Source: a phage
Sequence record: OZ346228.1
DNA length: 64,000 nucleotides
Direction: 5' to 3' (one strand)
Shown: positions 20,939 through 63,477 of the stretch, in pieces
Layout: each line of letters starts with the position of its first letter
Position numbering within the stretch: the first letter of the stretch is position 1
Position numbers and translations under genes: made by a program
The notes under the pieces: generated by a model
What the model was told of the DNA's origin: nothing
Databases searched by the model: none
What the model saw: only the letters and a program-made list of their open reading frames with translations

Positions 20939-21984
20939 AAGCACATAGCCGCCAGATCTCAGAATTTACGTACGCTCACCAGTCTATAGCCTGCTAAGTA
21001 TTTATTCCAACCATAGAATAACGGAATAGTCAATACCTGCATAAAATAATTATTCGTGTAAACTGCATAACATAAATCGGCTAGGATGTCAACATTTTTC
21101 GTAAACAGCTCGAAATTATAACGGTGAGTTATAATAAACAGAGAAATCTTTAGTCGTCTAATGTTTACTGTACATTACTATACTGACTGGAATCATTAGA
21201 TGACTAAGAGAAAGATAAGAAATCATTAACAATGCAATTGTTTTATTCGTAACAATAAGGCAACTATGCAAACGGATGGCATGGCGCGACGGAGTCGCGA
21301 CATAATATAAAAGCAGTAACCATCACCCCCGTGATAGTTTGTCTGCAAACTATTAATCAGATCATAGTTGCCTTGTATTTAGTTAATCATGACATAACAA
21401 GCAAGGCAACTATAGATCTGCTAATAGTTGCCCTGCTTTTATATTATGTCATAGATTATTAGCCTGTTAATTGTTAGTCAGTCAAATCAACAACGTTATC
21501 ATTTCAGTCTTTATTGTTGTTGATCGTTATTGTTATCATGCAAACGAATGGCATGGCTTATCATTTTTGAGTAAACAATCTATACGTGAACAGTGAGGCA
21601 TGCAATAGTAAGGGCGGGAATAATGAGAGTGTAAACTGTCAGGCATGTCAATTATATCAATCGTGTCAGTTATGTCACCATTATGTCAGACAAGTTTTTC
21701 TCCTCTTTGTCAAGTGCTGCATGAAAAATTTACAATCTTGTATGGTAGCATTTTTGCGGCCCTGTTTACATTCAGTATTGTATGTATAATCCTTGTTGTG
21801 TGGGCGTTTAGACGTCTAGACGGTCAGAAGTCTGCAGGTTAATATCTAATCTATCGGCTGCTAACTATATCCCACACAAATAGTAAGAAATATAATTGTT
21901 ATGTGCGTAAACAGTAACTCATGTTATCAATCCCTGTATGTATCGCCAGTGGTGCGCATAATGGGTATTATGTTAAATTGCCCG

Positions 21985-22128
21985 TAATGATAATGGTTCT
22001 CACAATGATAGGTATTCTCATTCCCCCACACAAAATAGATTGCAAATGTTGTGCCACTATGTGAACGGCCTCACCTATTAATTTGCCTCACTGCCTCGAT
22101 ATTTGAGAATTATCATAAGAATGAGAAG
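21985..22128. promoter_or_regulatory. Further copies of the Fur-box-like motif inside the 2.2-kb non-coding region
   Basis: AATGATAATGGTTCTCACAATGATAGGTATTCTCATT and inverted GAGAATTATCATAAGAATGAGAAG. Confidence 0.3.
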
Positions 22129-23125
22129 TATTCCCATTTCGTCCGCCTGGCAGCACTCCAGTCGCTACGGCTCAGAACAGGGCAGAATTGTGTCCATTCA
22201 GATATTTCTGTCTGGCTCTTCAGGTCTGTGTGGGAAAAGTCCACCTCTCTGGCGGGGCATGGGGTCATGACGGGAAAATTGCAGGTCAATTAAAAAATTT
22301 ACGTGGTGTATGAAGCGCTCTTCAGGTAAGGCATGTATTATGGGATGAAACCCTCTTCAGGCAATGATATTTGTGGGTGTGATATTTGCTGGAAAGCCAG
22401 ATATGACGGGACTCCCGGCGGGGCAGGGGTAGTACAGACAGGGGAAATATGGAGGATGTGGTTAGGTGAATTGATCAGACAGGTAGAGTATGGAATATGT
22501 TACAGGTATGTTAAATAGGGCGGCTGAATATCTGTAGGATTTGTGTGTAAAATCAAAGACTTAAGTGGTGTTGTGGTATTTTCTATAAATAATTCAAGTT
22601 TAATAGGTAATATTTGTCTCTATTCGCTTTGTGTGGTAAACAGATTCAGATGAGATTGGTTTACAAGCGTATACATAATATACAAATTAAAGATACAAGA
22701 AACCCCCCTCCCCCTTCGGCTACCATTCACCTTTTCCTCTGACTGGTACTTAAACACTTATTCAGACTCTTCAGGTTATCACCCATATATCATATGGCAG
22801 TGACTGGTGTCCTCCGGCCCCTCTTTCGTCACCCGTCCGCTTCGCCATGCTAATGCCATAGCCAATGGTTCGGTTGTTCACCCTGTTCACTCAGGTGTAT
22901 CTCCATACCCCTTCAAAACGAAGAGAACAGAAAACCCGAATTACTCGGTAAAAGAAAAGAGAAGAACTTAATTTTATCAGGATAGGCAAGAATGTCAAGG
23001 CATGACTGCTCACTAAACAAGCAAACAGTCATGTGTGGGAGGTAAGTGATTGTGGTGGTAGGAAATTTAGTTGAAAGATGTGTTATAGGTGCTTCCAGCA
23101 CTTTAGCCGGGCAGCTAATTGTGTG

Positions 23126-23341
23126 TCAGTCCAGCGGTTCATCCTCTACTTCACTGAAATCAATGTTCATGGTCTCTTCCCAACCATCGATCTCAGCACA
23201 AGAGTGGAGTTCTTTAGGGTTTACTCCTAAAGCCTCAGCAACAGAGTCTATATTTAACACCTCTGGCAGGTATGATTCATCAAATTCAAGGTAAATCAGG
23301 CCACGAGTGTTGTCAGCTCCACCAAATATTTCTATCTTCAT
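23126..23341 (-). CDS. hypothetical acidic protein
   Basis: RBS GAGGAG; last gene of leftward array. Confidence 0.5.
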   Translation of the reverse strand: MKIEIFGGADNTRGLIYLEFDESYLPEVLNIDSVAEALGVNPKELHSCAEIDGWEETMNIDFSEVEDEPLD

Positions 23342-23462
23342 AAAATCTCCTCTGGAAATGAGAGTGTGAACAGGGTTTTATACGTCCCAATGCACAGGAA
23401 TTATGCACGTTTTCCTCTTCAGGCCATGCTTTAGCATGAGGAACCTGTGTGGGCTCGGTGCT

Positions 23463-23675
23463 TCATAGTCTACCACCTCTGAACTCTTCGTGCTCAGGCA
23501 TAATAGAGAACCAGATATCTACGATGTCCTCCCACGTCAGGTCATCAGCCTCAGGATCTGTCTGGGACGAAGATGAAGAGTCCTCAGAATCTAAGTTTTC
23601 CTCTTTAACTGGCTCATCCAAGGGACATATGGTCACTCCTTCGGATGTCTCTTCAGATGCATGTGTGTTGATCAT
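23463..23675 (-). CDS. hypothetical acidic protein
   Basis: D/E/S-rich ORF. Confidence 0.5.
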   Translation of the reverse strand: MINTHASEETSEGVTICPLDEPVKEENLDSEDSSSSSQTDPEADDLTWEDIVDIWFSIMPEHEEFRGGRL

Positions 23676-24035
23676 GTTCCACCCGTGAGTATTCCGGCAA
23701 CAGCTGCTATGGACGTAATGATCATCAGGATCACCACTAAAACTTCGGACAATGTTCTCATTGTGTACTCCATATTCTACAAACTATGTGTGGATACTAT
23801 CACTGGATCGGTAATGTGTCAACAGAAACGCCGCGAGGGTTTGGTTAAAATCCGAGCGTATGGTGATTTGGGTCAAAACGGACGTGCGTTCTCGCTACGC
23901 TCGAAAGAGAGATTTGTTTGTAGGAAGCTCTTAAACGCTCTGTAATGAGATTATCTGTCCAAGGTATGCAATCGTGCACCAGATAAAGAAAAGGACGCCA
24001 CAGAGCGTCCTAGGTGTCTTAAATTTGATATTTTG

Positions 24036-58713: not shown

Positions 58714-59475
58714 TTAAAGTTCCATAAAGTTTTCTACAGTTTCAATAAATGCTTTATCAGAGAAAGCGTCAACAGCACCGTTAAACCATACAGGGATCCC
58801 GCGATCCTCATATTGATAAAGGTCGCTACGTGAAATGCCACTCCCATCTGCACTCTGCGAGTCATACTTGTTTACAATCAGCAGTTTTGTGCCTTTACAA
58901 GTAGCAGGAAACAATTCCCAGTTAAAATTAATAACTGTGTTAGAACAACCTACTAGGATCACCATATCATTGCTTGTGAGAGATGTCAACAGGTCATACA
59001 TGTCTGTATACTTAGGAGCAACCTCACCGAAGAACACTACATTGGGCTTAACCCAGGTATACTTGCCTGTATCTACCTCCGTGTATCCGATATTTTTAAT
59101 TACATCATTACCTTCAGCATCTTCGTAGGTGATTTCAGGCAAATACCCGTGGACATGTAAAATATCTTCATGTTTTACACCAGCACGCTCCAGCAAATCA
59201 TCTACATTGGTGGTAAGGTTGATCACACGACCAGACCAGCGGGAATACCACTCAGCGATCCGAAGATGTGCAAGGTTAGGATCAACACTGCCCAGAGCTA
59301 CACGACGTGCATTGTAAAAGTCATGCACCTTATAGTAGTTCTTGGCAAAGGTGTGGATGTTGCACACCTCATCGATGCTGAAATTCTCCCACATTGCAGT
59401 GCTACCAGATCGGAAAGTGGGAATACCAGATTCAGCGCTCAAACCAGCACCGGAGATAATAATCAGTCGTCGCAT
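58714..59475 (-). CDS. Sir2-family NAD-dependent protein (no zinc ribbon)
   Basis: ISGAGLSAESGIPTFRS, LTTNVDDLLERAG..HVHG, VVFFGE; no CxxC..CxxC pairs in small-domain region. Confidence 0.75.
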   Translation of the reverse strand: MRRLIIISGAGLSAESGIPTFRSGSTAMWENFSIDEVCNIHTFAKNYYKVHDFYNARRVALGSVDPNLAHLRIAEWYSRWSGRVINLTTNVDDLLERAGVKHEDILHVHGYLPEITYEDAEGNDVIKNIGYTEVDTGKYTWVKPNVVFFGEVAPKYTDMYDLLTSLTSNDMVILVGCSNTVINFNWELFPATCKGTKLLIVNKYDSQSADGSGISRSDLYQYEDRGIPVWFNGAVDAFSDKAFIETVENFMEL

Positions 59476-59483
59476 AAGTGTCC

Positions 59484-59834
59484 TCAGTAGATGTTTTGTT
59501 TAATCTCTATTCCAAACTTCTTGAATGAGTCAGCAGCAAGCATAAATTTACGAGCTGCCGATGGATTAGAAGTATGCACGAAAATAATCACGTTGTCAAT
59601 AAGTGGTGGCTTTCCGAATACAAGTTTCTCCTCTAGCGCAGAGAAGCAGTCGTACCCTTCAAGCACTTCACCTAGATCATTGTCAAAATACCACTCAGAT
59701 ACGCGTCTGTAGAGCTTTCTCTTATCATTAAGAAAATCCATAAACTCAGAAGAATTCTTTAGCCACAGAGCGTCTGGGAGTCCATAATCTGACGGATCTC
59801 TAAAATCATCAAGCCACACAATCCACTTCTTCAT
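59484..59834 (-). CDS. hypothetical protein
   Basis: 4-nt overlap with RNA ligase gene. Confidence 0.5.
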   Translation of the reverse strand: MKKWIVWLDDFRDPSDYGLPDALWLKNSSEFMDFLNDKRKLYRRVSEWYFDNDLGEVLEGYDCFSALEEKLVFGKPPLIDNVIIFVHTSNPSAARKFMLAADSFKKFGIEIKQNIY

Positions 59835-60766
59835 TGCATATAGTCCTCGTTGTGGAAATAGTAGTCCAGTATCTCACGACGCTCCTGCTCTAATAAGCAA
59901 TTCCACACATCTTCTGTATAGTTGCTACGAATAAATTTTACCATACCGTAAAACTCTTCGTCAACACGTTTAAAGATATCATCATCCCAAATCTTCCAAG
60001 CTTTACCCCTCATTACTGCCTTCCGTGCCAGATAGTATGGAGACTTGATCTTCAGCTGCAGATCATAAGGGTAGTAAGGCTTACGAATCATATACCCTTC
60101 ACCTCTTGTTTCTGCAGCTAATTCTTTTGCATAGCTGAACGGAATTTCACGCACAGTGTTAGGACGTTTTGCACCAAGGTATTTGGCAATCCCATCTAAA
60201 GCTGCTTCTGGTAGCATTATTCCAGAATCATTATATCTGCAACCTATCAAATATGCGCCATGGTCTTCTTGAACAATATGCGGATCTGAAGGGTGACAAA
60301 TTTCAAACATGAATGTCATGTTTTCATTGCCCATAACCTTCTTGATAAGATCTAAATTACCACATTGCTCTTGGATGGTTTCCTTTGCAAGGTTACAATA
60401 TGGAGAATCAAGAGACCCGGTTGTTGAGAACAATAGGTCACCTTTATGAGATGATACCACACCAAGGAATCCGTTCTTTTTCTCTACCGCAGTCACAAGC
60501 TTATTGTCAGGCAGGTTGGTGGAGTTTTCTCCCAAGTTAAACACTTTTGTGAAGGGCCATGCCACAACATTTCCTTCATTACCTACAACAATGCCTCGGC
60601 ACTCCAGTAAACGAGGGGACAAATGCCATAAATTGTTGTAAAATACTTTTCTAGCATATTTATAGATCTTTAACCCGAGATCTGGGTAATACCTACTGGT
60701 TACAAGACCTTTGTCAACTAGGTCGTCTGCATTAAAATACTTCATTATATGTTCCTCATTTGTCAT
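59831..60766 (-). CDS. RNA ligase, T4 Rnl1-like
   Basis: LECRGIVV, KVFNLGEN, motif I EKKNGFLGV, GDLLFSTTGSL parallel T4 RnlA LECRGIMF, KFFNLNEN, TKEDGSL, GDEILFKSKGSI (from memory); start may be ATG at 60745. Confidence 0.75.
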   Translation of the reverse strand: MTNEEHIMKYFNADDLVDKGLVTSRYYPDLGLKIYKYARKVFYNNLWHLSPRLLECRGIVVGNEGNVVAWPFTKVFNLGENSTNLPDNKLVTAVEKKNGFLGVVSSHKGDLLFSTTGSLDSPYCNLAKETIQEQCGNLDLIKKVMGNENMTFMFEICHPSDPHIVQEDHGAYLIGCRYNDSGIMLPEAALDGIAKYLGAKRPNTVREIPFSYAKELAAETRGEGYMIRKPYYPYDLQLKIKSPYYLARKAVMRGKAWKIWDDDIFKRVDEEFYGMVKFIRSNYTEDVWNCLLEQERREILDYYFHNEDYMQ

Positions 60767-60809
60767 TTTGTCAGTCTATCCTGCCACACAAATAACCTAG
60801 TGTCAACAC

Positions 60810-60838
60810 TTGAAATTAACAAAACAGTTAGGTATACT
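60810..60838 (+). promoter_or_regulatory. sigma70-like promoter in divergent region
   Basis: TTGAAA, 17-nt spacer, TATACT. Confidence 0.45.
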
Positions 60839-60866
60839 ACCGTTGAAATTAAAACGGAGGGTCGCT

Positions 60867-61277
60867 ATGTCTAAAATGCTATATATCGTGCGTGGTCTAC
60901 CAGGGTCTGGCAAATCAACACTGGCAAATGAGCTATCTTTAGAGGGTCTGTATCCACATTTTGAGAACGACATGTTCTGGTATGACGATGACGGCAATTA
61001 CAACTGGGATGCAAGTAAAGTAACACTCGCAGCAAAATGGTGCAAAGATAACGTAGAAGATATGATGCGTATGGGATACGACCGTATCGTGGTAAGTAAT
61101 ACGTTTACAAAAGAAAAACATGTGCAGGAATATGTTGACATGGCAATCACTCACGGGTATAGTTATACCGTGATCGTGGTTGAAAACCGCCACGGTAATA
61201 AAAGCATTCATGATGTTCCAGACAAGGTTGTGGATCGTATGGAACGCCAGCTTAAAAACTGCATTAAACTTAAATGA
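60867..61277 (+). CDS. P-loop polynucleotide kinase-like protein
   Basis: RBS ACGGAGG; Walker A VRGLPGSGKSTLA; divergent from RNA ligase. Confidence 0.6.
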   Translation: MSKMLYIVRGLPGSGKSTLANELSLEGLYPHFENDMFWYDDDGNYNWDASKVTLAAKWCKDNVEDMMRMGYDRIVVSNTFTKEKHVQEYVDMAITHGYSYTVIVVENRHGNKSIHDVPDKVVDRMERQLKNCIKLK

Positions 61278-61284
61278 GGAATGT

Positions 61285-61839
61285 ATGAAATACTTTGTAA
61301 CAAGCGACACACACTTTCTCCACCAGCGGGTCATGGAGTTTGATTCATGTCAAAAACACAGATCTCAGTATGATCACAATCTTGACAGTATGAATGCAGG
61401 AATCATCGCCGAGTGGAACTCTGTTGTGTCACCTGCAGACACTGTGTTCCACTTGGGAGATATTGCGTGCACTAATGATAAGAATATCAACAACTTACTT
61501 CCAGATATTCTAAATATGTTGAACGGACATATTATTCTTGTTCGTGGCAACCATGACACAAGGACGACTGTCAGAATTATGAAAGAGTTCGGTCATGAGG
61601 TTGTAGATTATTACGAGCTTCGCCACAACAAGAATTTGATCTGTATGAGCCATTACCAGTTTGCAAAGTGGAACAGAAAGCCTCACGGATCAGTCCAACT
61701 GTTCGGTCATGCTCACGGAACCACACAACAGTTGTTTGGCAGGCAGCTTGATGTCGGTTGGGATGTGTGGGGGAGACTCTTACCATTAGAAGAGGCATAC
61801 CGTATTGCAATGAGTTTTGATATTGACAGCAGGGAGTAA
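61285..61839 (+). CDS. calcineurin-like metallophosphoesterase
   Basis: RBS TGAGGA; motifs SDTHFLH, HLGDIA, VRGNHD. Confidence 0.7.
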   Translation: MKYFVTSDTHFLHQRVMEFDSCQKHRSQYDHNLDSMNAGIIAEWNSVVSPADTVFHLGDIACTNDKNINNLLPDILNMLNGHIILVRGNHDTRTTVRIMKEFGHEVVDYYELRHNKNLICMSHYQFAKWNRKPHGSVQLFGHAHGTTQQLFGRQLDVGWDVWGRLLPLEEAYRIAMSFDIDSRE

Positions 61840-61886
61840 TCCCTGCTATTTTAAAGAAAATTGCCACACAAGGAGAATCAGGAGAT

Positions 61887-62237
61887 ATGAAAGATGGGGA
61901 TAAGCTGCTATATCTTAAAGTCCCCCTTGAAATACTATCTATGTCAAAAGTTTTGAATGACACAACTGGGGAGGTTGTTGTTCTTGACTTGTATGACAAG
62001 ATCGTATACTGCTACCTGCACAACTGGTATAAGCTTGGAGGAAATTCACGCTTCACACCAAGCACAAGGAAAATTGCAGCAGATGTTGGGATAAAGAAAA
62101 CAAAAGCAGCAGCGTGCGTTAAAACTTTAGAATGTGCAGGAGTGGTTGAAACATCCACACAAGGGAGAGGTAAAAGATGCACATTTTCCAAAGTTTTGCC
62201 ACCAGAAGAAGTTATTCGGATGTCAACAACTGGTTAG
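61887..62237 (+). CDS. putative DNA-binding (HTH-like) protein
   Basis: RBS AAGGAG; STRKIAADVGIKKTKAAACVKTLECAGVV resembles an HTH; followed by palindrome array. Confidence 0.5.
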   Translation: MKDGDKLLYLKVPLEILSMSKVLNDTTGEVVVLDLYDKIVYCYLHNWYKLGGNSRFTPSTRKIAADVGIKKTKAAACVKTLECAGVVETSTQGRGKRCTFSKVLPPEEVIRMSTTG

Positions 62238-62311
62238 ACCAGTAAAAACTTAAATATCTGTACTATAAGGATTCGTATGTTTTATGTTCGCCATGGAACG
62301 GATACTATTAA

Positions 62312-62394
62312 CTGTCCGTGATACGGACACTACTGTCCGTCACGCGGACACATCTGCCCGTAATACGGACACTAACTGTCCGTGATACGGACAC
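62312..62394. repeat. Four tandem 19-bp palindromic sites, 21-22 bp period
   Basis: CTGTCCGTGATACGGACAC, CTGTCCGTCACGCGGACAC, CTGCCCGTAATACGGACAC, CTGTCCGTGATACGGACAC; followed by ~130 bp AT-rich DNA. Confidence 0.6.
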
Positions 62395-62528
62395 ATAAAG
62401 AATATAACTAAAATAACTAAATAATAAAAAATAAAAGATCTAGTACTTATGGTACTAAGTACATATACTTAACTTATGTAGAATATACTAGATCCTAAGT
62501 ACCATGTTTTAAATTTATTACTTACTAT

Positions 62529-62790
62529 GGGCAGTGTCGGCCCTTCATTGGCACTCGCCTACGAGGGGGCGAGATGCCGGGCCTCCTTGGCGCACACAAT
62601 AACAGAAGTTCATACATGCAGGTCTGTTAACATGTGTGGGAGCGAAGCGATAGCGCAGGCCAAAGGCCGAGCACTGATGTGGACCACCGACGAAAGCTTG
62701 CCAGCGCCGTAAGGAGTCGGTTGAGAGTCTCCCGCGCGAGCTTGGATGAAGTTTATGTGTGGAAACTGACAAGAAGGCCCCTAAATCGCT
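62529..62790. other. GC-rich structured non-coding element (candidate ncRNA)
   Basis: ~260 nt of sharply higher GC flanked by AT-rich DNA; hairpins GGCACTCGCC..GGCGAGATGCC and GGCC-AAA-GGCC; track ORFs here on both strands look spurious. Confidence 0.3.
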
Positions 62791-62898
62791 CCACAGCTAT
62801 ATAAACTATACCAGGTAATGCAATCGCACCAGTTTGATAGAAAAGCTCGTTACAAAGCGATACAGTGAGTTTTTCTATAACTTGAAGAGGAGGCAGCT

Positions 62899-63477
62899 AT
62901 GGGTTCACGCAAAGATGACCGTGAAAAGATTGCAAAACGTTATCAGAATGAAGAACAGATGGAGAAAACTTTCAAGTGGAAGCCAGGTTTCCAGCGTAAT
63001 CATTCTAACGCTCGTGATCGTAAGCATCCGGATAAGTGGCTAACACCGCCAAATGATGGCATGCAGGTTGGGGATGAGAAGGAGATGTCGCCTGGAAAAG
63101 ATGGCAACTACATTCGCACTAAGGACGCTGGTCCAAAGGATGACAGCTATCTTGTAGATAAGGTTCTTGATGGTATCAATGTAGATGTTGACACTGCACG
63201 AAACCTTTTTCTTGGGTGGTATCGCACAGGTTTTTTCGACATCAAGGCTATTCGTCGTGTTTGTGATATTAAAAAGTCTGCATATGATGACGACTCGTTA
63301 CATCGCACCCTGAGACAATATTCAGAAAGATATGGTCATCCGGTTATCACTCTTGACGATGTTAACGAAGTGATGTATCATGCAGAGGTTGTTGCAGGAA
63401 GATTCGGTGATGCATATCTTGATATCCTTTCTGCAAAGGATGAGGTAATGTTAAATAAGATTTACTATGAACGCTGA
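62899..63477 (+). CDS. hypothetical protein
   Basis: RBS GAGGAGG; 192 aa. Confidence 0.55.
   Translation: MGSRKDDREKIAKRYQNEEQMEKTFKWKPGFQRNHSNARDRKHPDKWLTPPNDGMQVGDEKEMSPGKDGNYIRTKDAGPKDDSYLVDKVLDGINVDVDTARNLFLGWYRTGFFDIKAIRRVCDIKKSAYDDDSLHRTLRQYSERYGHPVITLDDVNEVMYHAEVVAGRFGDAYLDILSAKDEVMLNKIYYER

Follow-up and report, generated by a model that had tools for sequence, protein, structure and literature searches.

Beside some plasmid origins lie single-strand initiation (ssi) signals, such as ssiA and ssiB of the RSF1010 oriV and the G4-type "G-site" downstream of R1 oriR. Their hairpins act once the DNA has become single-stranded, and they are recognized by primase or the replisome independently of the initiator. 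Origin transcripts form another group, with the ColE1 RNA II pre-primer, T4 oriF/oriG and the T7 primary origin as examples; for transcripts of the ColE1 RNA II type, folding decides whether replication starts. Between helper phages and their satellites, the classic shared sequence is the helper packaging site, e.g., P2/P4 cos. Phage satellites that persist as plasmids were described in 2026, in Vibrio only (the PISP and cf-PISP satellite-plasmids; PMC13230959). The present analysis concerns a GC-rich block at positions 62529-62797 of a 64,000-nucleotide stretch of phage DNA (sequence record OZ346228.1, hereafter the window), which by its sequence is an rV5-like Vequintavirus, i.e., one of the E. 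coli myophages of about 137 kb. This block is a real, previously undescribed element. It is non-coding, its base pairing is conserved, and it adjoins an origin-like module in which, we tentatively suggest, it may act in replication as a folded single strand.

A conserved non-coding block and its base pairing

The composition of the block is exceptional. Its G+C content lies 4.5 standard deviations above the mean of all 269-nucleotide (nt) windows (42.8%, standard deviation 3.3), no other such window of the 64 kb matches its value, and the left flank (62395-62528) drops to 19.4%. The initial annotation had placed a GC-rich block here, between a palindrome array (62309-62394) and the next gene (62899-63477), and both the composition and the position were confirmed. 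The elements discussed below are the following:

62529-62797, + strand: GC-rich structured block, 57.6% G+C; homology with the divergent relative L136 from 62536
62532-62542 with 62665-62676, + strand: long-range helix P1 (RNAalifold, 11 pairs)
62550-62578 (62550-59/62568-78), + strand: hairpin M1, GGCACTCGCC / GGCGAGATGCC, with an 8-nt loop; 100% of cells paired
62593-62636, + strand: hairpin M2 (inverted repeat I5), CACACA...TGTGTG outside and AACAG/CTGTT inside, the 3' arm with TGTGTGG
62677-62738, + strand: conserved core, consisting of ATGTGGACC, the stem 62686-91/62716-21, a 24-nt loop and GAGAGTCTCCCGCGCG (comparative pairing)
62732-62762, + strand: G·U-rich helix CCGCGC / GTGTGG around the hairpin AGCTT-GGATG-AAGTT (RNAalifold helix 11)

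DNA searches with the region 62200-62900 returned 119 phage records, all of them Vequintavirus, with 88-100% identity. The block was aligned among 11 Vequintaviruses, and 16 phage sequences made up the RNAalifold set. The divergent phage-type homologues were L136 (IMG/VR contig IMGVR_UViG_3300010279_000001) and the metagenome locus L286, at 83% identity, and further homologues were provided by satellite-like plasmids of two types (S1 and S2, see below). The comparative sample thus spans one genus and about ten satellites, which is a low diversity.

Three open reading frames (ORFs) run within the block (62527-62712 and 62634-62804 on the + strand, 62545-62772 on the - strand), and conservation was lacking in all of them. 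Among the 11 Vequintaviruses the block shows indels of 1 nt, 3 nt (a deletion) and 17 nt (a deletion); the S1 satellites differ in length by single nucleotides, every + frame of the S2 satellites is interrupted by stops, and none of the frames runs open through all three sequence classes (phage, S1 and S2). The ORF 62634-62804, which would encode 56 amino acids (aa), begins with GTG, has no ribosome-binding site and is annotated in few genomes; its translation matched four protein clusters among 5.8 billion proteins, all rV5-like and without a Pfam domain. Given the frame-shifting indels and the lack of a universally open frame, the block is not protein-coding; the initial annotation had noted that the ORFs on both strands lack a ribosome-binding site and are odd in composition.

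No known RNA was recognized either. An Rfam covariance scan of the whole window at gathering thresholds gave no match to any family, with group I introns, Y RNA/YrlA, 6S, SRP, RNase P and C4/CI antisense RNA among those covered, and no tRNA or tmRNA was found within it by ARAGORN, in agreement with the initial failure to see a tRNA, tmRNA or group I core by eye. When the Rfam search of 62200-63000 was relaxed to E<=10, rli43, mir-154 and HOTAIRM1_3 alone appeared, all of them sub-threshold and outside the block or at its edge; the rli43 match reached 22.5 bits against a gathering score of 100 bits and lay mostly in the AT-rich flank.

The multiple hairpins first proposed for the block were supported by comparison more strongly than by folding energy. 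The RNA fold has an energy of -103.6 kcal/mol, with z = -2.0 (+ strand) and -1.65 (- strand) relative to shuffles, and the DNA fold reached z = -1.7 and -1.4; by energy alone the hairpins are only marginally above chance and not significant. Across homologues, by contrast, pairs are kept through double changes. The RNAalifold consensus of the phages contains 72 pairs, with 98.4% of cells paired, and among phages alone a double change occurs in 1 of the 72, a variation too low for statistics. In the core stem 62686-91/62716-21, compared among phages and S1 satellites, the pairs AU6/GU2/GC3, CG8/UA3 and AU8/CG3 were found. Double changes thus affect three of its six pairs, all cells remain paired, and this covariation was reached by none of 500 shuffles. 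The satellite L014 carries M1 with four stem substitutions, which amount to two double changes from G-C to U-A, a level that 8 of 500 shuffles reached. The covariation check proposed in the initial annotation was therefore favorable to structure, and since the sequences are related, these shuffle controls overstate significance.

The loop of the core stem hardly changes. In the phage this 24-nt loop is GAAAGCTTGCCAGCGCCGTAAGGA, containing CC-GTAA-GG; in the common form GAAAGCTTGCCAGCGCCG(T/G)AAGGA, phage and S1 satellites are alike at 23 of 24 positions. The sole difference is a tetraloop position of the CC-GNAA-GG hairpin (GUAA<->GGAA), which is variable among phages too. A covariance model of the core (R1) matched the window a single time, at 95.6 bits. 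In the S2 satellites the core position is occupied by another perfect stem, of 8 bp (GTCCGGAT/ATCCGGAC), whose loop is unrelated.

L136 and a deletion in two phages add to this support. In the phages Murica and typing phage 5, the 17-nt deletion falls in M2 and leaves a shorter perfect hairpin, CACACATG/CATGTGTG. As read from the alignment, L136 has ACAGC/GCTGT in M2 in place of AACAGA/TCTGTT, and a GGGAG...CTCCC pairing is kept there as GGAAG...CTTCC. M1 can be extended by GGCCC (62539-43) with GGGCC (62579-83), an outer helix that competes with P1, which encloses M1 and the hairpin 62593-62636. The terminal pair of P1 is U-A in 11 sequences, C-G in three and U·G in one, and L136 retains the pairing only via a register shift (read from the alignment). 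In the helix 62732-37/62757-62, three pairs are G·U, and in the lineages of Aya and of L136 one of these is replaced by G-C. This helix can form on the + strand only; it and the 3' hairpin 62758-63/62790-95 are mutually exclusive. Because P1 excludes the outer M1 helix and the G·U helix excludes the 3' hairpin, the predicted helices do not combine into one global fold. Base pairing within the block is nevertheless conserved through compensatory changes, with three helices supported, and this pairing fits a structured RNA or a folded DNA alike.

The origin-like module and the satellite plasmids

To the left, the block adjoins a module with the following parts:

61887-62237, + strand: winged helix-turn-helix (HTH) gene, 116 aa, initiator-like; Pfam HTH_36 and DUF6945, just below cut-offs
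62309-62394, no strand: four 22-nt iteron-like units, each with a 17-bp palindrome TGTCCGTGATACGGACA, spaced by 21-22 nt (D1, I1-I7)
62395-62528, no strand: AT-rich stretch, 19.4% G+C, with nested palindromes at 62437-62510 (inverted repeats I2, I10, I11 and I14)

The 116-aa protein matched PHROG 12838, "replication initiation protein", with E = 5e-80, and PHROGs 8102, 428 and 270 more weakly. Palindrome units number 3 to 6 among relatives, and unrelated repeats occupy the array position in L136 and in every satellite. The AT-rich stretch, a candidate DNA-unwinding region, is almost invariant among the 11 Vequintaviruses and is replaced by an A-rich tract in L136. Phased repeats, an AT-rich flank and a cognate initiator-like gene, the anatomy of an iteron origin, are found together here. 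Both the strand switch and the minimum of the cumulative GC skew are about 1.7 kb away. Judged by these sequence features, the context of the block is an origin-like module and not RNA repair. The initial annotation had placed the block beside the RNA-repair genes (Rnl, PNK and phosphoesterase), and a tie to these was not supported: the block travels with the origin-like module, and in satellites without such genes.

The comparison with L136 separates the block from the rest of the module. The phosphoesterase gene is 90% identical in this relative, and from 62536 rightwards the identity is 83%. Between them, L136 2173-2770 replaces window positions 61850-62535, so that the HTH gene, the repeats and the AT-rich stretch are exchanged as one cassette and the neighboring genes are kept. 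The replacement HTH protein has 143 aa and 28% identity to the 116-aa protein, its repeats are of the GATACATATTTGCATCAGAT type, and the A-rich tract is a different one. Homology picks up again precisely at 62536. Since the HTH protein and the repeats were swapped together, the DNA-binding protein and its sites appear to be an exchangeable cognate pair, with the block as their constant partner.

In DNA searches, block homologues were found in two kinds of replicon only, Vequintaviruses and circular "plasmids" of E. coli. The latter measure 13.2-13.9 kb, and one was assembled as a 39.6-kb head-to-tail trimer. The loci compared (L014, L015, L137-L144, L221 and L241) include two metagenome contigs; the accessions are NZ_CP020521.1, NZ_CP043822.1, CP148565.1, NZ_CP035869.1, NZ_CP178698.1, NZ_CP074841.1, NZ_JBUCKS010000006.1, NZ_AP045055.1 and CP134895.1. 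Among their products are a PF03864 (capsid E-type) major capsid protein, tape-measure and tail-completion proteins, a protein annotated as baseplate, an HTH protein of 86 aa and an HTH_36/O-like replication initiator of 306 aa, and about 2 kb of their DNA is non-coding and rich in hairpins. Neither terminase nor portal was recognized among the ten satellite proteins scanned. When ranked by coverage times identity, the top matches of the tape-measure protein in the phage collection were Vequintavirus tape-measure proteins (26-27% identity over 71%, E = 6e-12); the capsid protein had distant matches only, in myophages of 133-150 kb. Apart from the block, BLAST of the satellite ORFs and non-coding stretches against the window gave no match. 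From their sequences, these 13.5-kb elements look like satellite-plasmids of rV5-like phages. No report of a satellite for Vequintavirus was found in the searchable literature.

The order of parts in the satellites is palindromic repeats, an AT-rich stretch of the CTAATAGATAAA type, hairpin modules, the shared core, strong promoters and the operon of the O-like initiator. The palindromic repeats differ by element (e.g., CCCCGGTAAATATTACCG, CCTGTTGGAATTTCCCACAGG and CGGAAGATTTCTCCG). Between the AT-rich stretch and the core lie 1 to 4 hairpin modules, punctuated by TGTGTGGG and unlike each other in sequence and length. The block of the S2-type satellites matched none of the phages. Searches with short motifs added little: in IMG/VR, the 14-mer GCTTGCCAGCGCCG gave chance matches only among the matches listed, and the gapped pattern ATGTGGA-N30-60-AGTCTCCCGCGC gave at least 51 chance matches in GTDB genomes and was unmatched in IMG/VR because one pattern position is polymorphic. 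An 18-mer retrieved four phage-type and two satellite-type loci among 111 in metagenomes, which makes the family a narrow one.

Two tandem canonical intrinsic terminators were observed on the - strand of satellites (L138 1398-1420 and 1483-1511; L139 1281-1303 and 1366-1394), between the left edge of the hairpin array and the AT-rich/iteron region. On the + strand, their G/C-tract terminator hairpin contains four G-runs (GGGGGAATGGGGAGGG...GGGG). To the right of the hairpin array there is a weak - strand promoter. Such an arrangement would be consistent with antisense transcription, or with shielding of the repeats against transcription that enters from outside.

Several candidate identities were tried and rejected. 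The likeness of the satellite loop CCGGAAGGAGGCAGC to domain IV of signal recognition particle (SRP) RNA was dropped, the "GCAGC" part being covarying stem, and no SRP model matched. A Y RNA beside RNA-repair genes had neither a model match nor a conserved Ro-binding helix. Primase sites of the T7 type (GTGTC/GGGTC, at the 5' edge) have a chance frequency too high to count. ToxI-like antitoxin RNAs of type III toxin-antitoxin systems consist of tandem near-identical repeats of about 34-45 nt, and mimics of them occur in the rV5-related phage phiTE; the block has no internal direct-repeat family. Finally, the UUCG/UACG tetraloops read in satellites proved to be 3-nt loops (CCC-TTC-GGG and GTGCC-TAC-GGCAC), and the argument for RNA based on them was abandoned.

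Proposed role and rival explanations

We infer that the region is an origin and that the block acts in replication, with DNA or RNA as the active form. The reading that we put forward, while holding it at somewhat below an even chance, is that the block is an origin-proximal element acting as a folded single strand and not via a protein. The small winged-HTH protein would bind its four phased palindromes, the adjacent 19%-GC stretch would then open, and the hairpins of the block would form in the exposed + strand DNA or in a rightward transcript crossing it. The folded hairpins would be the place of priming or of replisome entry, or of its control, and the 24-nt loop on the covarying stem (62686-62721) might serve as a sequence-specific recognition site. 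Under this proposal, the block would stay constant, beside an exchangeable set of initiator, iterons and AT-rich DNA, because the machinery with which it interacts does not change. The satellites, with their own initiator and iterons and a copied block, could then use or sense the machinery of an rV5-like helper.

The features bearing on the active form are divided. The RNAalifold energies of the two strands are nearly equal (-73.6 for + and -73.0 for -). Three nucleotides were the commonest loop size among 76 hairpins scanned across the satellite arrays, L136 and the block of the phage (22, of which 15 have stems of >=5 bp). Examples of such loops on strict Watson-Crick stems are C-GAA-G and, at 62642-48, the heptamer GCGAAGC, a classic hyper-stable DNA mini-hairpin. 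A DNA fold of the block keeps P1, M1 and M2, and in the predicted folds stable hairpins lie close to the AT-rich stretch, as in ssi-type anatomy. In the two-hairpin satellite module, double changes occur in 6 of 12 pairs and one-sided (wobble) changes in none; stems this poor in wobble fit folded DNA or a sense/antisense pair as well as RNA. A count of wobbles against mismatches in satellites gave 6 G·T and 8 C·A, mostly redundant, and was uninformative as to strand.

Other observations weigh against a DNA form or against an origin. The A-U/G·U/G-C series, the GUAA<->GGAA tetraloop and the G·U-rich helix 62732-37/62757-62 favor + strand RNA. As the number of satellite modules varies from 1 to 4, the distance between the core and the putative unwinding site is not fixed. 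DnaA boxes (TTWTNCACA), which many but not all iteron origins have, are not enriched: they occur seven times in the window, with 8.3 expected, and not once in 62200-62900. The phased palindromes could be operators of a regulator and not iterons. Origin mapping in rV5-like phages was not found in the searchable literature, and in the rV5 genome paper the skew changes were tied to transcription only and an origin was not definable (PMC3606486).

The initial annotation described the block as looking like a structured RNA. Of this claim, what stands is a non-coding element with compensated helices, present in 119 of 119 phage records; the nearly equal strand energies do not single out RNA, and no sigma-70-like promoter or intrinsic terminator was predicted to bracket the phage block. 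The main rival, a structured non-coding RNA working in gene expression and not in replication, within a rightward early transcript or as one of a sense/antisense pair, is possible, if on the doubtful side. It could be a processing or stability element, an RNA that binds RNA polymerase or a protein, or a kissing partner of satellite-helper transcripts. Since every flanking gene reads in the + direction and terminator prediction gave none from the HTH gene to the block, the block should be transcribed, and the RNA reading also draws on the tetraloop exchange, on a C-G/U·G/U-A series beside the A-U/G·U/G-C one, and on the three-G·U helix, which is kept or improved in two lineages. A loop common to phage and S1 satellites over a covarying stem is moreover the pattern of an antisense-recognition loop; the satellite terminators and weak promoter could delimit an antisense RNA of about 480 nt, and if both strands are transcribed, wobble-free stems are to be expected. 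The strands so implied disagree, however, being + in the phage data and - according to the satellite terminators. There is also no Rfam family match, no promoter or terminator whose distance from the block is conserved among the phage, L136 and L014, and a folding z of about -2 that is no better on the + than on the - strand; 3-nt loops are unusual for natural structured RNAs, and a Vequintavirus transcriptome is absent from the searchable literature. Packaging gives a quite improbable reading, in which the block is the pac region of a headful-packaging phage and was copied by satellites for packaging by the helper terminase. The block being the sole DNA similarity that BLAST found between window and satellites, the lack of a recognized terminase or portal, the trimer, as expected from headful packaging of concatemers, and the reported circular permutation of the rV5 genome (PMC3606486) would all agree with it. 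The place of the block, in the early region by initiator-like functions and away from packaging genes, does not, and covarying stems are unexpected for a double-stranded terminase site; besides, S2 satellites have another hairpin and loop with no phage match, and two other satellite non-coding regions could hold pac.

That the block is a functionless GC-rich remnant, either a recombination scar or carried satellite or foreign DNA, is still less probable. Its composition is unlike the rest of the genome, modules are shuffled among satellites, and its left edge is a recombination junction; yet it is kept in every Vequintavirus record, its conservation relative to L136 is close to that of the coding gene next to it (83% over the combined alignment), its stem substitutions are compensatory, and E. 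coli chromosomes gave no match to it. We give hardly any credence to a small arginine-rich protein encoded by the 56-aa ORF, even though it is annotated as hypothetical in a few records and its frame is open across the core in the phages, L136 and some S1 satellites. Beyond the GTG start, the missing ribosome-binding site, the S2 stops and the four rV5-like clusters already mentioned, non-synonymous changes among phage variants equal or exceed synonymous ones (read from the alignment), the compensatory stem changes alter four to five residues, and a 1-nt difference in S1 length shifts the frame.

Alongside the origin-proximal folded strand, a bolder reading, which we consider unlikely, would make the block the handle by which an unrecognized family of E. 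coli satellite-plasmids exploits virulent rV5-like phages. The satellites would have copied the origin-proximal module of the helper, with the 24-nt loop near-unchanged and the stem drifted by compensatory change. The copied block would let the helper replisome replicate the satellites, or an antisense transcript would pair with helper early RNA and so sense or throttle infection.

The rV5-like phages are widely isolated and form part of E. coli phage-therapy and biocontrol collections, while their origin and non-coding elements are undescribed. With the block there is now a specific candidate, open to experiment, for the place of the origin and for a conserved cis-acting or RNA element in that region. 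Its presence in the ~13.5-kb elements points to satellite-plasmids of a virulent coliphage, with helper and satellite meeting through a nucleic-acid module that both carry. Such elements could influence both yield and host range when rV5-like phages are used in therapy. If the handle reading were true, this would be an interface at the nucleic-acid level, distinct from the known protein-based induction and from cos/pac sharing.

Neighboring DNA and comparison with known systems

Left of the block, genes for a DNA ligase, a Sir2 protein, a cREC_REC receiver-domain protein and a T4-type RNA ligase lie on the - strand, and those for a polynucleotide kinase, a metallophosphoesterase and the 116-aa HTH protein on the + strand. 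The gene cluster at 58714-61839 (Sir2 family, cREC_REC or cyclic-phosphate processing receiver, T4-type RNA ligase, polynucleotide kinase and metallophosphoesterase) looks like an RNA-repair or anti-defence cassette set across the point of divergent transcription near 60800. To the right, two features follow:

62837-62878, + strand: leader hairpin of the 192-aa gene, outside the block; inverted repeat I8, 12-nt arms, 92% complementary
62899-63477, + strand: gene for a 192-aa protein, function unassigned; no Pfam match, PHROG 12226 (unknown function)

The leader hairpin (ATAGAAAAGCTC...GAGTTTTTCTAT) is nearly invariant, even in L136, whose 3' part of the block has diverged. The 192-aa protein is restricted to the genus, with tblastn matches in Vequintavirus records only, and synteny searches with this and the 116-aa protein found nothing beyond the genus Vequintavirus. 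In relatives, a tRNA cluster lies about 2.6 kb downstream of the 192-aa gene. Over the searched region 62200-62900, 18 GenBank records (MG0656xx) named "Campylobacter phage", with C. jejuni as host, were 97-99% identical to E. coli rV5-like phages; their naming probably reflects mis-assigned hosts or contaminating coliphages.

Another probably non-coding region, 21300-24000, spans about 2.7 kb, and none of its ORFs exceeds 94 aa. It is probably the "non-coding" box marked in the rV5 genome paper, where the skew analysis was inconclusive (PMC3606486). The heptamers TGTGTGG/CCACACA occur 30 times in the window, with 9.4±3 expected, and 8 of the 30 fall in this region, the + copies about 400 nt apart. 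Repeated CTCTTCAGG motifs, three copies of ATAGTTGCCYTG and six of TGTCA (spaced by about 10-11 nt) were also seen here, as well as 16 sigma-70-like promoters, mostly on the - strand, with 8.2±3 expected; no Rfam match was obtained for 21300-24000. Short modules at 23089-23125, 21866-21885 and 22026-22040 are common to the satellite non-coding region; as they are too short for BLAST, their homology was judged by reading. They consist of a hairpin pair, GGTGCT-TCC-AGCAC / TTTAGC-CGGGC-AGCTAA, followed by TTGTGTGT (compare L143), of CCCACACAAATAGTAAG (compare L014, just 5' of its M1 module), and of CCACACAAAATAGAT (compare CCACACAATAGAT of the satellites).

If the block acts as DNA, its nearest anatomical parallels would be the RSF1010 ssi hairpins and the R1 G-site. 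In these systems too, initiator-binding repeats and an AT-rich stretch are followed by stable hairpins, and short loops of the GCGAAGC type are shared. The block differs in its size (about 270 nt, with several helices), in having no sequence similarity to them, in being common to a virulent phage and satellites, and in containing some helices that need G·U pairs, which make for poor folding in DNA.

If RNA acts, the parallel would be origin transcripts such as ColE1 RNA II. The common ground is a structured GC-rich non-coding stretch that adjoins a (candidate) origin and is independent of the replicon-specific initiator. Unlike the present module, however, ColE1 RNA II and the T4 and T7 origins have no iterons or initiator protein, and unlike ColE1 RNA II, the block has no identified promoter, no partner of the RNA I type and no Rfam match. 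The lambda origin resembles the module in its four phased dyad repeats followed by an AT-rich stretch, and in the HTH_36 initiator-like proteins matching O-like PHROGs. It is located within the O gene, however, and lacks a long block of GC-rich hairpins, and the phage protein here is a 116-aa DNA-binding domain only.

On the satellite side, the block resembles P2/P4 cos and the cos sites of cos-type phage-inducible chromosomal islands, in that helper and satellite were found to be alike in nucleotide sequence over a short non-coding stretch alone. Those are double-stranded terminase sites near packaging genes, whereas the block covaries as a folded strand in a replication-like module. Like the E. 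coli plasmids, the Vibrio PISP and cf-PISP elements are small circular episomes with plasmid-type replication; they measure 11-16 kb, and their capsid gene belongs to PF03864 or PF05065. Unlike the E. coli plasmids, they have no tail genes and carry parA/repA (PMC13230959). The E. coli elements are set apart from the Vibrio PISP by their tape-measure, baseplate and tail-completion genes, their O-like initiator and their approximately 2 kb of hairpin-rich non-coding DNA.

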